Of a stretch of DNA of 32,000 nucleotides, positions 17,398 through 24,919 are shown one piece after another. A program made the translations under genes and the position numbers. Position 1 is the stretch's first letter. The number at the start of each line of letters is the position of its first letter. This stretch comes from Chloroflexota bacterium (GTDB lineage: Bacteria > Chloroflexota > Anaerolineae > B4-G1 > SLSP01), in NCBI GenBank assembly GCA_019873725.1, contig JAIOAS010000010.1:7214-39213 (forward strand), in the 5' to 3' direction. The notes beneath the pieces are model-generated. The model did not search any database and was not told where the DNA came from. It was given only the letters and a program-made list of their open reading frames with translations.

Positions 17398-18222
17398 ATG
17401 TCCGAGACAACTCCACAAACCCTGAGCGGCGTGGCCGAAACGCTGCTCATGACGGTCTACATCCGGGCCATGGAATCGCAGCGACCGGACGCGTTGATCA
17501 AAGACGAGAAAGCCGTGGCGCTGGTCACGAGCATGAGCTACGACTTCGACCGGATCAGACAGCTCAAGATGGACGAGGATGACAAGGTCGGGGTGATCCT
17601 GCGCAACCGCGAATTCGACCGCTACGTGCAGAATTTTCTGGCGCGCAACCCGGAAGCAGTCGTCGTGCACATCGGTTGTGGTCTCGATTCGCGCTTCGAG
17701 CGGGTGGATAACGGCAAAGTCGAATGGTACGACCTTGATCTGCCAGAGGTTATCGCGCAGCGCCGGAAATTCATTGGTGACGAAAAGGAACGTTATCACT
17801 TGCTGGCCGGTTCGGTGTTCGACGCCGCCTGGCTGGACAAGGTCAGTGTGCATCATCAGCGTCCCTTTCTGTTTCTGGCCGAAGGCGTCTTGATGTACTT
17901 CGAGGAAGCCCAGGTCAAGGCGTTGGTGCTGATGCTGCGCGACCACTTTCCCGGCGCGGAGCTGGTCTTCGATGCCTTCTCGCCGTATCTCGTGCGGATG
18001 AACAACCTGCGTATGGCCATCAGCAAATTCGGCGTTCGCTATCATTGGGGACTCCGGCGTGGTCAGGAACTCGAAAAGTGGGGGGATGGCATCCGCCTGC
18101 TCGACGAGTGGGGCTACTTTGACCGGCCCGAGCCACGGCTGGATCACATTCGCTGGATGCGGCACATTCCACTGCTTGCCAGGGTGATGCGTATTTACCA
18201 TTATCGCCTGGGAGAGACATGA
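17398..18222 (+). CDS. TcmP / leucine-carboxyl-methyltransferase-like (COG3315-type) SAM-dependent O-methyltransferase, paralogue 1
   Basis: The track ORF 16870..18222 is an artefactual extension; the real start is ATG 17398. Motifs: LSGVAETLLMTVYIRAMESQRPDALI.D, VVHIGCGLDSRFERVDN, WYDLDLPEVI, FLAEGVLMYF. Confidence 0.75.
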   Translation: MSETTPQTLSGVAETLLMTVYIRAMESQRPDALIKDEKAVALVTSMSYDFDRIRQLKMDEDDKVGVILRNREFDRYVQNFLARNPEAVVVHIGCGLDSRFERVDNGKVEWYDLDLPEVIAQRRKFIGDEKERYHLLAGSVFDAAWLDKVSVHHQRPFLFLAEGVLMYFEEAQVKALVLMLRDHFPGAELVFDAFSPYLVRMNNLRMAISKFGVRYHWGLRRGQELEKWGDGIRLLDEWGYFDRPEPRLDHIRWMRHIPLLARVMRIYHYRLGET

Positions 18223-18235
18223 GAGGGAAGATCCA

Positions 18236-18532
18236 ATGTCTAAGCATACTATCCGCAATCTGAACGCAGTCTCCCAGACGCTCCTGATCCCCTTGTATTT
18301 TCGGGCGCTGGCTTTCCATCGCCCCGATGCACTGGTGCGCGATCCCAAGGCAGTGGAACTGGTCGGCCAACTCGACTATGACTTCTCCGCCGTCCAGAAG
18401 CTGAAGAACGATTCGGTCAATTAACGGTACTTCCCATTCCTCGCCAGGATGGTGCGTGTCGTGCATTACCGGCTCGGAAAGACGGCAGAGAGAGAAAGTC
18501 TTTCGTTTCCAGGTGGACAGGAGGTACTATGA
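18236..18532 (+). pseudogene. Remnant of a TcmP/LCM-like methyltransferase (large in-frame internal deletion plus stop)
   Basis: The N-terminal 60 aa (LNAVSQTLLIPLYFRALAFHRPDALVRD..QLDYDFS) stop at TAA 18422. In the same frame, FPFLARMVRVVHYRLGKT matches the family C-terminus (compare IPLLARVMRIYHYRLGET). The ancestral stop overlaps the next ATG as ATGA at 18529-18532. Confidence 0.6.
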
Positions 18533-22110: not shown

Positions 22111-22240
22111 GCTGCGCCTGCGTCAAGCGCGCATCGATGATAAGCAGTTGGATGAAAATTCCAACCGCGAATGTCCGCCAATTTCCTGGAAATTCGCGTT
22201 GATTAGCGAGATTAGCGGTTTGTTTTTGGGAGGTGAACTG

Positions 22241-24919
22241 ATGAGCACAGACTATGTGATGTCATTATCCGATCCCCAGGCGACGCTGGCGCTGGCCGGC
22301 GGCAAGGGTGCGTCGCTGGCCCGGTTGGCCGGTGCGGGGCTGCCCGTGCCGGACGGTTTTTGCGTAACCACCGCCGCTTACCAACAATTTGTCACGGAAA
22401 ACGACCTGCAACCGCGCATCCAGGCCGCCTTGCAGACCGCCGATCCCGCTCAACCCGTCACCCTGGAGACCGCCTCAACTGAAATCCGCGCCCTTTTCGC
22501 CACCGCCCTCATCCCCCCCGCCATCGCTGCCGAAATCGAACTAGCCTACACCGCTCTCAACGCGGCATCCTGCATCTTGCCTCCTGCCTCCTGCATCTTG
22601 CCCCCTGCCCCTTGTCCCGTCGCCGTGCGCTCCTCCGCCACCGCCGAAGACCTCCCCGACCTCTCCTTCGCCGGTCAGCAGGAAACCTACCTCAATGTGC
22701 AGGGGATTGAGACCGTGCTGGACGCCATCCAACGCTGTTGGGCCAGCCTGTGGACGGCGCGGGCTATCGGCTACCGAATCCAGCACGGCATCGACCAGGA
22801 AACGGTGAGCCTGGCAGTCGTCGTCCAGCAGCTCGTACCGGCAGAAGCCGCCGGCGTCATGTTCACTGCCAACCCATTTACCGGGCGGCGCGACCAGGTG
22901 ATGATCAGCGCCGCATGGGGGCTGGGCGAATCCGTGGTCGGCGGGACGGTGACGCCCGACATGCTGACGCTGGACAAAGCCACTGGACAAGTGACCGCGC
23001 GCGACACCGCCGACAAACAAGTGATGACCGTGCGCGTGGCAAGCGGCACGACAGAACAGCCGACGCCAGAAGCCTTGCGCCGCGCCCCCGTCCTGGATGA
23101 CGCGCAAGCCGCCGAACTGGCACGGCTGGGCGTCCAGATCGAGGCCCTGTACGGGATGCCCATGGACATCGAATGGGCGTGTATACTCCCCTCTCCCTCT
23201 GGGAGAGGGGCCGGGGGTGAGGGAAGGTTCTTCATCCTCCAGGCGCGGCCCATCACGGCGCTGCCTGCCGCACCCGTCATCTCACCGCCGACCGAGTGGA
23301 AACTACCCAATCCCAAAGCCATCGGCTTTCGCTCCAGCATCATCGAACAACTGCCCGATCCCCTGACGCCCCTGTTCGGCACGCTGGGCCGGCGAGTGAT
23401 CAACACTGGCACAGCGCACCTGTTTAACGACATCTTGAGGTGGGGCATACCGGACGAAATCTATGTGACGGTCAATGACTATGCCTACTTTCAGATGCAT
23501 ATCACCTTCAAATTCTTGTGGCAGATGCTTGGCTTTCTGCGCCCTTCGGCCTGGAAAATCCTGACGCGGAGCGTGGAGCGTTGGCGGGACGAGGCGCATC
23601 CGCACTACGTGGCCGTCATCGAGCGTTGGAAAAGTCGTCCCCCGCGCGATCTGCCTGCCGCCGATCTCTTGACCGCTGCAAGCGAGTTGCTGGCCGAAAT
23701 GGTGAATACCTACACCGTCCTGCAATCGGGCATCGTCGGAATAGCGATGGGCGCGGAGATGGGATTCGCATCGTTTTACGATAAGCTGGTCAAGCGGCGC
23801 ACCGATCCTCCGGCGCTGACCTTCCTGCTGGGCCTCGACAGCCTGCCGATCCTGGCGGAAAAATCGCTCTACGACATCGCGCAGGCATGCCATGAGTCTC
23901 CCGAGCTGGCCGCCTTTATCGAGCGCACGCCTACGGCATCCCTGGCTGCGCTGTTGGCCGGGGCAGACGTCCCGCCGGACGTTCCCGCCGACATCTGGCG
24001 TGAGTGGCAGCAGCGTTTCCGCGCGCACCTGGCGCAATATGGACACACCACCTACGACCTCGACTTCGCCAAGCCGACGCCGGCAGATGATCCCGCACCG
24101 CTTCTGGAAACGGTCAAAATGTACCTCAAAGGTCAGGGAACCAGCCCCTACGAACGCCAACAGACATTGGCAGCGCGGCGTGATGAAGCCATTCAGGACG
24201 TCTCCGGGCGGCTGCGGGGACTGCGCCTGAAATGGTTCCGTAAACTGTTGGGCTGGGCGCACCGCTACGGCCCGATGCGCGAGGACAGCCTGGCCGACCT
24301 GGGTCTGGGCTATCCCCTGCTGCGCCAGATGTTGGGCGAGCTGGGGCGACGTCTGGTCGAGGCCGGGATGCTCGCGCAGGCCGACGACGTTTACTGGTTG
24401 TACGAGCCTGAAGCCGTGCAGGCTGCTGCCGCCCTTGACCACGGCGAGAAGCTGAATCCTATGACCGAGGCGATCGTGCAGCGCAAAGCCGTCTGGCAGG
24501 CTGAAAAGCAGGTCACTCCGCCGGTGGGATTGCCCGTGGGTTCCAGATTTCTGAGACGTGTGGAAAAAATCGGACCGGCGCGCACCGATAGCACAGGAGG
24601 TGCAACCCTCAAAGGCGTAGGCGCCAGCCCAGGGCGCGTCGTGGGCACGGCGCGCGTGCTGCGCGGCCCGGAGGAATTCGGGCAGATGCAACCGGGTGAC
24701 ATCCTGGTGGCAGCGATCACCACGCCGGCGTGGACGCCACTCTTTACGATGGCGGCGGGCATCGTTACCGACGTGGGCGGGCCGTTCAGCCACGGCAGCA
24801 TCGTCGCCCGCGAGTACGGCATCCCGGCGGTGCTCGGCACCGGCGCAGCCACCCGCCGCATCCATAGCGGGCAGACGATTACCGTGGACGGAACGACAGG
24901 GGAGGTCATTCTAGCCTGA
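22241..24919 (+). CDS. PEP/pyruvate-binding (ATP-grasp) + C-terminal swivel-His phosphotransferase, rifampin-phosphotransferase-like architecture
   Basis: Start ATG 22241 (RBS GGGAGGTG). Motifs: AGGKGASLARLAGAGLPVPDGF, VAVRSSATAEDLPDLSFAGQQETYLNV, DIEWA...ILQARPIT, and C-terminal PGDILVAAITTPAWTPLFTMAAGIVTDVGGPFSHGSIVAREYGIPAVLG. There is no C-terminal TIM-barrel domain, so it is not a canonical PpsA. Confidence 0.8.
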   Translation: MSTDYVMSLSDPQATLALAGGKGASLARLAGAGLPVPDGFCVTTAAYQQFVTENDLQPRIQAALQTADPAQPVTLETASTEIRALFATALIPPAIAAEIELAYTALNAASCILPPASCILPPAPCPVAVRSSATAEDLPDLSFAGQQETYLNVQGIETVLDAIQRCWASLWTARAIGYRIQHGIDQETVSLAVVVQQLVPAEAAGVMFTANPFTGRRDQVMISAAWGLGESVVGGTVTPDMLTLDKATGQVTARDTADKQVMTVRVASGTTEQPTPEALRRAPVLDDAQAAELARLGVQIEALYGMPMDIEWACILPSPSGRGAGGEGRFFILQARPITALPAAPVISPPTEWKLPNPKAIGFRSSIIEQLPDPLTPLFGTLGRRVINTGTAHLFNDILRWGIPDEIYVTVNDYAYFQMHITFKFLWQMLGFLRPSAWKILTRSVERWRDEAHPHYVAVIERWKSRPPRDLPAADLLTAASELLAEMVNTYTVLQSGIVGIAMGAEMGFASFYDKLVKRRTDPPALTFLLGLDSLPILAEKSLYDIAQACHESPELAAFIERTPTASLAALLAGADVPPDVPADIWREWQQRFRAHLAQYGHTTYDLDFAKPTPADDPAPLLETVKMYLKGQGTSPYERQQTLAARRDEAIQDVSGRLRGLRLKWFRKLLGWAHRYGPMREDSLADLGLGYPLLRQMLGELGRRLVEAGMLAQADDVYWLYEPEAVQAAAALDHGEKLNPMTEAIVQRKAVWQAEKQVTPPVGLPVGSRFLRRVEKIGPARTDSTGGATLKGVGASPGRVVGTARVLRGPEEFGQMQPGDILVAAITTPAWTPLFTMAAGIVTDVGGPFSHGSIVAREYGIPAVLGTGAATRRIHSGQTITVDGTTGEVILA
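22565..22613. repeat. Heptanucleotide array (GCATCCT GCATCTT GCCTCCT x2 GCATCTT GCCCCCT GCCCCTT) inside the phosphotransferase CDS
   Basis: It encodes ASCILPPASCILPPAPCP immediately before the conserved VAVRSSATAED motif. Confidence 0.8.
23186..23224. repeat. GC-rich palindromic (REP-like) element inside the phosphotransferase CDS
   Basis: CCCCTCTCCC-tct-GGGAGAGGGG hairpin plus CCGGGGGTGAGGG. The 23-mer is identical to 3802-3824. It encodes CILPSPSGRGAGGEG, inserted between DIEWA and ILQARPIT. Confidence 0.8.

Follow-up and report, generated by a model that had tools for sequence, protein, structure and literature searches.

A methyltransferase and rifampin-phosphotransferase-like kinase gene cluster beside hgcAB in an Anaerolineae genome

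A 32,000-nucleotide stretch of contig JAIOAS010000010.1 (assembly GCA_019873725.1, a Chloroflexota bacterium of the Anaerolineae), called the window below, carries a string of genes for methyltransferases of the LCM family and for two kinases related to rifampin phosphotransferase (RPH). RPH-like dikinases, a class of small-molecule kinases that is only now emerging, are known to act in the inactivation of antibiotics, in the synthesis of prodiginines, and in the catabolism of phenols or lignin monomers. The genes of interest are three intact methyltransferases (MT1, MT2 and MT3), the remnant of a fourth (MT4), a kinase without an ATP-grasp domain (SHORT) and a three-domain kinase (LONG). A sequence-only reading had described six open reading frames (ORFs) as two units of two methyltransferases and a kinase each. 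All six ORFs are in the ORF listing where that reading placed them, and the two LCM-LCM-kinase units are present. The same reading explained the units by tandem duplication, which in any recent sense is contradicted by the comparisons below. L and P numbers are our handles for loci and proteins from other assemblies.

The gene string and its boundaries

The genes of the string and the other features discussed here are listed in Table 1. The string begins with a cation-transporting ATPase whose top NCBIfam match is the PMR1-type model TIGR01522 (577 bits, under the cutoff of 798). It is followed by a regulator that had been called GbsR-type. The match to MarR_2 places this protein among the MarR-type regulators, and its likeness to GbsR/CudC appears only weak (25.7 bits with the GbsR-type model CudC, cutoff 218). 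The product of the third gene is aligned by ArsM models over the core that binds S-adenosylmethionine (SAM) only, with 77 bits against a cutoff of 263.

According to the ORF listing, same-strand intergenic gaps between 13740 and 24919 are mostly 4-38 nt. The exceptions are the pseudogene remnant of about 100 nt 5' of SHORT and a gap of 130 nt 5' of LONG. The promoter-like site ahead of the ATPase gene is the top scorer of a promoter scan over 13000-27600, and a terminator-like hairpin follows LONG. The genes thus bounded appear to form a single operon-like string of about 11 kb, of which the two units are the distal half.

Table 1. Coordinates of features in the window and, in the last five lines, of damaged LCM genes in related clusters
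Feature	Position	Strand	Basis or remark
Promoter-like site	13655-13683	+	TTGACA-17-TAAAAT, TG upstream; consensus match 11/12
P2A-type (PMR1/SERCA-like) cation P-type ATPase	13740-16208	+	First gene of string; Pfam E1-E2_ATPase, Cation_ATPase_N/C
MarR-type winged-helix regulator	16224-16706	+	MarR_2, 40.7 bits
Class I SAM methyltransferase, UbiE/ArsM-like Rossmann core, hydrophobic N-terminal segment	16712-17359	+	Methyltransf_11/25/31, ~77 bits
MT1, LCM-family SAM methyltransferase	17398-18222	+	PF04072, 63 bits
MT4 pseudogene (LCM remnant)	18236-18496	+	Translation and alignment
SHORT, 544-aa kinase without ATP-grasp	18529-20163	+	Pfam PF00391 only
MT2, LCM methyltransferase with C-terminal tail of ~95 aa	20187-21290	+	PF04072, 62 bits
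MT3, LCM-family SAM methyltransferase	21295-22110	+	PF04072, 58.6 bits
LONG, 892-aa three-domain kinase	22241-24919	+	PPDK_N, 345 bits; PEP-utilizers, 90 bits
Terminator-like hairpin	24937-24972	+	9-bp stem, 7 G-C pairs, then T-run; 18 nt past LONG stop codon
Promoter-like site	24950-24977	+	TTGACA-16-TACAAT, near-consensus; precedes arsR
ArsR regulator	25008-25343	+	Starts 89 nt 3' of LONG
HgcA	25425-26393	+	NF040863, 443 bits (cutoff 275); cap-helix motif NVWCAAGK
HgcB	26588-26956	+	96.4 bits, below cutoff of 99; two CX2CX2CX3CP ferredoxin motifs; Cys-rich C-terminus TCCGPEAACCG
Hma-type anti-phage defence genes	2626-5781, 8501-9499, 9496-12582	-	Profile matches
Heptanucleotide repeat arrays	2597-2650, 3466-3515, 5616-5658, 8974-9134, 22568-22618, 25347-25375		
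Damaged LCM gene, L168	2009-3087		
Damaged LCM gene, L002	12273-13114		
Damaged LCM gene, L003	13061-13360		
Damaged LCM gene, L027	1129-2764		
Damaged LCM gene, L170	2315-2701		

The methyltransferases

MT1, MT2 and MT3 were first taken for O-methyltransferases of the COG3315/TcmP type, and the family assignment stands: all three match Pfam LCM (PF04072) with 58.6-63 bits, against a gathering cutoff of 22.3. The SAM-binding motif IGCGLD(S/T)RF is found in each of them and has the sequence VVVHIGCGLDSRF in MT1. Their sole match among solved structures is mycobacterial ML2640 (PDB 2CKD, E = 4e-5). The PF04072 match and the GCGLDxR form of the SAM motif are what they have in common with the LCM/TIGR00027/COG3315 proteins, which include TcmP-type enzymes and ML2640. 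They differ from these in the occurrence of multiple paralogues per operon, in the frequency of pseudogenes, and in a transmembrane helix and Met/Cys-rich tail unique to MT2.

Orthologues of all three occur in other genomes, with identities of 68-78% for MT1 (P0225, P0198, P0237), 83-89% for MT2 (L170, L168, L165) and 74-83% for MT3 (P0122-P0126). Ratios of nonsynonymous to synonymous substitution (dN/dS) of 0.12 for MT2 and 0.15 for MT3 indicate purifying selection. The C-terminal extension of MT2 consists of the transmembrane helix, from about position 21069, and the Met/Cys-rich tail, from about 21147. The tail repeat MMxRMQAEGxDPxEMCQxMM is kept in the L170, L168 and L165 orthologues, the unit being doubled in L168 and L165, and the tail is missing from the 73%-identical P0223. 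The extension as a whole (21069-21290) looks like a soft-metal-binding motif fused to a methyltransferase.

Translation and alignment of 18236-18532, which had been read as a methyltransferase remnant, show that it is a genuine remnant of an LCM gene. An N-terminal piece of 62 codons ends at an in-frame TAA (18422-18424), beyond which about 20 C-terminal codons (YFPFLARMVRVVHYRLGKT) follow in the same frame. MT4 is therefore an internally deleted pseudogene that has lost about 190 codons. Both pieces match the same intact proteins (P0148, P0144, P0159 and P0162), which make up a fourth LCM clade, and the N-terminal piece is 81% identical to P0148 across 62 aa. The identity of this piece to each of MT1, MT2 and MT3 is 46-47.5%, without preference for MT3, so the earlier view of the remnant as sister of MT3 does not hold; its nearest intact relatives are those of the P0148 clade. 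This remnant also occurs in a second assembly, L001.

Damaged LCM genes, whether frameshifted, truncated or fragmentary, are common in related clusters (Table 1). At L027 a deletion has seemingly joined an MT4-type gene, truncated at about position 170, to a SHORT gene minus its first ~200 codons. The frequency of LCM pseudogenes and fragments in the window and at L168, L002, L003, L027 and L170 fits an accessory locus with fast turnover of its gene content.

The kinases

LONG consists of an ATP-grasp domain, a helical middle domain and a C-terminal swivel His domain. The domain order like that of rifampin phosphotransferase, with the swivel His at the extreme C-terminus, that had been proposed for the kinase is thus borne out for LONG. 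The protein matches the Listeria monocytogenes RPH structures (RPH-Lm, 5FBS/5HV1) with E = 9e-86. Its scores with the RPH equivalog models are 398 bits for NF041857 (cutoff 999) and 321 bits for NF000283 (cutoff 1700), and those with PigC/RedH and "PEP synthase" (phosphoenolpyruvate synthase) subfamily models are about equal. The L168 orthologue is 80% identical, with a dN/dS of 0.19.

Two small features were noted in LONG. A 13-aa insertion in an ATP-grasp loop ("SPSGRGAGGEG", 23183-23224) is missing in more distant orthologues and is present in diverged form in L168; the stretch "PSPTGRGVRE" in the ORF at 2626-5781 resembles it, and the insertion has the look of a small repeat element that entered in frame. 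The ATP-grasp domain also contains an in-frame heptanucleotide array that encodes ASCILPPASCILPP.

SHORT has a helical substrate-binding domain followed by a swivel phospho-His domain. The swivel domain (PEP-utilizers, PF00391) is its entire Pfam content, and there is no ATP-grasp domain. It belongs to a family of proteins of about 545 aa that has more than 100 members, several of them annotated as Anaerolineae; among the matches listed, 118 of 120 homologues span 535-570 aa and are 60-87% identical to it. His501, in the motif TDVGAPLSH, is invariant in 118 aligned family members, and a dN/dS of 0.09 against the L170 orthologue points to purifying selection.

The short enzyme had been said to align with the post-ATP-grasp part of the long one. 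The architecture is indeed collinear, but the BLASTP alignment is confined to the swivel His domain, the C-terminal 102 residues, with 50% identity. Profile-profile comparison extends the alignment through the middle domains in collinear fashion at 19% identity (E = 2.4e-5, probability 75%). The SHORT family profile matches RPH residues 559-867 (E = 2e-29). A structural model was built with AlphaFold2 (AF2) from a 118-sequence alignment and has a mean predicted confidence (pLDDT) of 87; an earlier model from 20 sequences (pLDDT 57) was not used. Foldseek matches the AF2 model over its whole length to RPH-Lm 5FBU/5FBT (E = 4e-19, TM-score 0.66, 18-19% identity). Scores with the RPH equivalog models are 112 bits for NF041857 and 79 bits for NF000283. 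As modelled, SHORT is an RPH-like protein minus the ATP-grasp domain, which is the architecture of the HpeH/CreH/PpsA proteins described below.

Middle domains of the SHORT type are also found in full-length enzymes of Actinomycetes, Firmicutes and Lokiarchaeum that bear an ATP-grasp domain, namely those of Nonomuraea, Paenibacillus, Desulfosporosinus, Sedimentibacter and Lokiarchaeum (38-48% identity). In P0111, which is 61% identical to SHORT, an ATP-grasp domain is fused exactly at the point where SHORT starts ("SRPITTLQGHNPATGEWNDS"). SHORT, whose own lineage is widely conserved, therefore derives from another kind of dikinase by loss of the ATP-grasp domain and is not a truncated LONG.

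Identification of the kinases as PEP synthases was rejected. The PEP/pyruvate-binding TIM barrel (PF02896) is not among the Pfam matches of LONG or SHORT, even at E <= 10, and the PEP synthase equivalog scores are below cutoffs.

Origin of the two units

Pairwise identities are 53% for MT1 and MT2, 46% for MT1 and MT3, and 48% for MT2 and MT3. In a neighbour-joining tree the three proteins fall into separate clades with many foreign lineages between them. The only DNA that the two units share is in patches of 94-151 nt with 63-78% identity, located at conserved motifs, and nucleotide comparison found no long repeat spanning both units. The order of branching was addressed with a four-clade distance test, which replaced a node-count bootstrap of the large neighbour-joining tree; the latter was uninformative because the clades are unevenly sampled.

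The sequence-only reading held that paralogues in corresponding positions resemble each other most and that one unit had been copied in tandem. As a recent event this would mean that an MT-MT-kinase unit was duplicated here and that copy A then decayed to a methyltransferase remnant and a 5'-truncated kinase. The shared gene order, the pseudogene in unit A, and the collinearity of SHORT with the post-ATP-grasp part of LONG all agree with such a history. Against it, the paralogues are only 46-53% identical to one another while orthologues elsewhere reach 68-89%, and it is these orthologue identities, with each methyltransferase closer to its foreign counterparts than to its paralogue in the window, that refute a recent duplication. 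The placement of the MT4 remnant in a fourth clade, the 19% identity of the kinase middle domains and the absence of long DNA repeats tell against it as well. SHORT, moreover, has its own ribosome-binding site and start codon and is a member of a large family under selection. A recent copying is extremely unlikely. An ancestral LCM-LCM-dikinase triad may instead have doubled before the Anaerolineae lineages split, with later divergence and shuffling. The four-clade test favours the grouping (MT1,MT2 | MT3,MT4), in 363 of 500 bootstrap replicates, and the LCM-LCM-kinase order is seen again in L003, L114, L174 and L168. The alternative grouping (MT1,MT4 | MT2,MT3) appears in 136 of 500 replicates, however, and MT1-MT4 is the most similar clade pair, with 53%. 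Numerous other LCM lineages separate the four clades, and the type of methyltransferase in each position differs among loci. The middle-domain lineage of SHORT is shared with full-length enzymes of other phyla and is not that of LONG, and the two kinases are therefore not duplicates of each other within this clade. The test hints at deep positional paralogy, a hint that is not robust, and we regard an ancient doubling of the triad as possible but rather improbable. On the comparisons made, the two units are paralogous modules that diverged long ago. Each has orthologues of its own in other Anaerolineae, and they are not the product of a tandem duplication within this genome.

Related clusters in other genomes

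Groupings of methyltransferase and kinase genes are found repeatedly elsewhere, as a survey of neighbourhoods in other genomes shows. In Chloroflexota the recurrent cluster typically comprises SHORT together with a LONG-type dikinase, between one and three LCM genes, membrane methyltransferases of the ICMT/PEMT kind, and either a P2A ATPase or a regulator of the ArsR/MarR type. Its variable members are class I methyltransferases, short-chain dehydrogenases, metallo-beta-lactamase-fold enzymes and ATC hydrolase. A P2A-like ATPase heads the clusters of L002, L003, L006 and L041.

The gene order varies. A LONG-type ORF lies directly 5' of SHORT in L002, L003, L004, L006, L086, L091, L092 and L117, and L010 has the reverse order, SHORT and then LONG. 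MT2-MT3-LONG is present in L168/L169. L170 has MT2-MT3 followed by a gene that is cut at the contig end, with the first 102 residues present; this locus and L165 also have the order PEMT-SHORT-x-MT2-MT3. L174 has three consecutive genes: one MT1-like, an intact MT4, and one of the LONG type.

Within 6 kb of the 35 short-form loci an LCM gene occurs in 11, an ICMT gene in 14 and a LONG-type gene in 11, counts that are lower bounds because many contigs are short. The corresponding numbers for the 77 loci with full-length enzymes of the SHORT type are 0, 1 and 1. L089 encodes a single ORF of 1424 aa (1585-5856) with the domain order ATP-grasp-mid-swivel-mid-swivel, and a SHORT gene about 1.4 kb downstream. 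This fusion is a hint, of the "Rosetta-stone" kind, that acceptor modules without ATP-grasp may cooperate with a complete dikinase.

Comparison with known systems

The characterised systems closest to the kinases fall into three groups. RPH is known from the L. monocytogenes structures 5FBS/5FBT/5HV1 (Stogios et al. 2016, PMC4844700). LONG has the same three-domain order, SHORT has the fold of the rifampin-binding and swivel domains, and the catalytic His motif is kept. Unlike RPH, both score far under the equivalog cutoffs and have substrate domains that are only 18-19% identical, SHORT is without ATP-grasp, and the genes are embedded in a multi-methyltransferase operon.

HpeHI, CreHI and PpsAB (phenylphosphate synthase) are phenolic dikinases made of separate ATP-grasp and acceptor proteins, with the partner acting in trans (Dexter et al. 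2025, PMC12167813). HpeH alone moves phosphate between substrates (PMC12167813). The HpeH/CreH/PpsA clade has about 45% mutual identity. SHORT has the acceptor architecture, an RPH-like substrate domain with a swivel His, and is likened to these proteins by architecture. The mechanism proposed below, in which an ATP-grasp partner charges the protein in trans and a hydroxyl is then phosphorylated, would be a further likeness. No stand-alone ATP-grasp gene like HpeI/CreI/PpsB is present in the 32-kb window, where the only PPDK_N-type domain is inside LONG, and there are no carboxylase or other catabolic genes near the cluster, which are further differences.

The prodiginine-condensing enzymes PigC, RedH and HapC come from the same superfamily, and their domains are in the same order. 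The PigC and RedH models give 385 and 378 bits with LONG and 124 bits each with SHORT, far under their cutoffs of 1300-1350, and prodiginine biosynthesis genes are not present at the locus. MarK (PMC12624787) was considered as a related kinase and set aside, since it belongs to an unrelated kinase family.

Literature searches on dikinase-methyltransferase clusters and on LCM/COG3315 function returned no described system of this composition, in agreement with the sequence-only reading. The cluster, whose composition is conserved, is best filed with the RPH-like and two-component small-molecule dikinase systems.

The arsR-hgcAB genes and other features of the window

Genes for an ArsR regulator, HgcA and HgcB follow LONG on the same strand and make up a complete mercury-methylation locus, in the arsR-hgcA-hgcB order known from the literature (PMC7438021, PMC10349881). 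The methyltransferase/kinase operon differs from that locus in appearing to be a separate transcription unit and in a linkage to it that is kept only in close relatives. A perfect palindrome, ATCGTAAAAATACGAT, at 24980-24995 lies between the -10 element and the ribosome-binding site of arsR and is a candidate operator for ArsR.

MT2-MT3-LONG-arsR-hgcA-hgcB is syntenic in L168/L169, of which L168 is GCA_035340735.1, a related Anaerolineae metagenome assembly. In L177, whose HgcA is 75% identical, the genes upstream are unrelated. L175 and L176 (HgcA 92% and 89% identical) are contigs of 57-59 kb that end about 200-250 bp upstream of hgcA or arsR and are therefore uninformative on the linkage. 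On the 3' side of hgcB both are syntenic with the window (RsmF, APH, ABC permeases, and in L175 also F420H2_quin_red). That both contigs end here suggests a variable or repetitive segment upstream of arsR at which assemblies break. In Desulfosporosinus fructosivorans (L017, 4743-16767) two RPH-like dikinases, each preceded by a TetR gene, lie 3-8 kb upstream of arsR-hgcA-hgcB. Apart from this loose, mixed-orientation arrangement, no hgcA was found in other methyltransferase/kinase loci with 10-kb flanks.

The DNA upstream of the operon has the look of a defence or variable island. Its Hma-type genes encode HmaB, a DUF1156 DNA-adenine methylase (267 bits), HmaC, a DUF499 ATPase (356 bits), and an ASCH/DUF7680 protein. 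An HmaA helicase was not among the defence genes seen in the window. Tandem arrays of seven-nucleotide units (among them GCTGACC, GCTGGAT, TCCTGCC and GTAGACA) are spread over the window, and those inside ORFs stay in frame. One array sits in the arsR-hgcA spacer. These repeats resemble the STRR-like short tandemly repeated elements described in cyanobacteria. A 77-nt tandem repeat at 27491-27653 (2.1 copies, 98% identical) overlaps the 5' end of a gene for an F420H2-quinone-reductase-like protein and occupies most of the gap that precedes the RsmF gene.

Proposed mechanism and function

We read the locus as one operon-like string of the Anaerolineae in which old paralogous modules, an RPH-type LONG and a trans-charged SHORT may together modify small molecules, and we consider this reading about evenly balanced between right and wrong. 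By analogy with RPH and HpeHI, the ATP-grasp domain of LONG would bind ATP, the C-terminal swivel His would be pyrophosphorylated, and the gamma-phosphate would be hydrolysed. The phosphorylated His would then swing to the helical middle domain and phosphorylate a hydroxyl of the bound small molecule, for a net reaction of ATP to AMP, Pi and a phospho-product. His501 of SHORT would be charged in trans, most likely via the ATP-grasp domain of LONG. Alternatively, SHORT may shuttle phosphate between a phospho-product, such as that of LONG, and a second substrate, as HpeH alone does. The very different middle domain of SHORT would represent a second substrate specificity, and the LCM enzymes would act as SAM-dependent O-methyltransferases on the same or related small molecules.

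The cluster resembles an accessory system for modifying small molecules, given the ICMT/PEMT, short-chain dehydrogenase and metallo-beta-lactamase-fold genes in sister loci and the MarR/TetR/ArsR regulators. That its substrates are phenolic, xenobiotic or antibiotic compounds is a guess from the activities of characterised relatives and, again, from the regulators at the loci; modification of antibiotics or xenobiotics, as first suggested for the cluster, is plausible. A bolder version may be called "one charger, two acceptors". In it the ATP-grasp domain of LONG would charge both its own swivel His and that of SHORT, and the resulting branched phosphorylation would be coupled to the LCM/ICMT carboxyl- and O-methyltransferases in a previously undescribed system for xenobiotic or natural-product modification in Anaerolineae, inserted beside hgcAB in this lineage. 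This version is speculative and seems to us a good deal less probable than its simpler parent.

Several points weigh against the reading of the locus as a small-molecule modification operon with a trans-charged SHORT. It gives no account of the role of the P2A ATPase, and the promoter-like and terminator-like sites that bound the string are consensus matches only. Charging of SHORT by LONG is something that we infer only, by analogy, and a substrate molecule shared by methyltransferases and kinases is a supposition. The three LCM proteins score 71.1, 63.3 and 57.3 bits with NCBIfam TIGR00027, all under its cutoff of 93.55. Several short-form loci (L007, L011 and L161), with 9-10 kb of flanking sequence available on at least one side, have neither a LONG-type gene nor an ATP-grasp gene in the vicinity. 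The second module of the L089 fusion is of the LONG type and not of the SHORT type, and the "split" LONG of L002, considered as a natural two-component enzyme, was rejected: its break is inside the middle domain, at about residue 470-490, and is more likely a frameshift.

Two other functions were weighed. LONG, and perhaps SHORT, could be true rifamycin-inactivating phosphotransferases and the cluster a rifamycin resistance locus. The three-domain architecture of LONG speaks for this, as does the fact that RPH-Lm is among its top sequence matches of solved structure and is the top fold match of SHORT. The RPH equivalog scores are low, however, and the aligned regions are mostly the ATP-grasp and swivel parts, whereas the middle domains that would bind the substrate are strongly diverged; scores with PigC/RedH and "PEP synthase" subfamily models are about as high. 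To our knowledge, moreover, a multi-methyltransferase context has not been described for rph genes, and we consider rifamycin inactivation very unlikely. The cluster could also be an accessory of mercury methylation, for example by supplying or modifying a substrate or cofactor for HgcAB or by handling mercury or methylmercury. The genes arsR-hgcA-hgcB begin just beyond LONG, the synteny extends to L168/L169, RPH-like genes are close to arsR-hgcAB in L017 too, and the conserved Met/Cys-rich tail of MT2 could bind soft metals. Between LONG and arsR, however, are a terminator-like hairpin and an independent near-consensus promoter-like site, the genes upstream in L177 are unrelated, and the other methyltransferase/kinase loci with flanks of 10 kb are free of hgcA. 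In L017 each of the two kinase genes has a TetR regulator of its own, and SOD, Usp and DedA genes in mixed orientations stand between the pair and hgcAB. Papers on hgcAB neighbourhoods report arsR and ars genes, not dikinases (PMC7438021, PMC10349881). A role in mercury methylation is scarcely more probable than one in rifamycin resistance. Because of the terminator-like hairpin and separate promoter-like site, the context of L177 and the cluster loci without hgcA, the adjacency to hgcAB is treated as lineage-specific and probably incidental.

Significance

The locus bears on three subjects. For mercury research, the neighbourhood of hgcAB in this genome is probably an unrelated variable island. 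For the RPH-like kinases, an acceptor protein without ATP-grasp that is kept beside a complete dikinase would widen the two-component subfamily, itself defined only recently, and would provide a testable case of charging in trans. Anaerolineae are abundant in anaerobic digesters and sediments, and the repeated coupling of such kinases with LCM and ICMT methyltransferases in their uncultured members points to an uncharacterised pathway of small-molecule modification.

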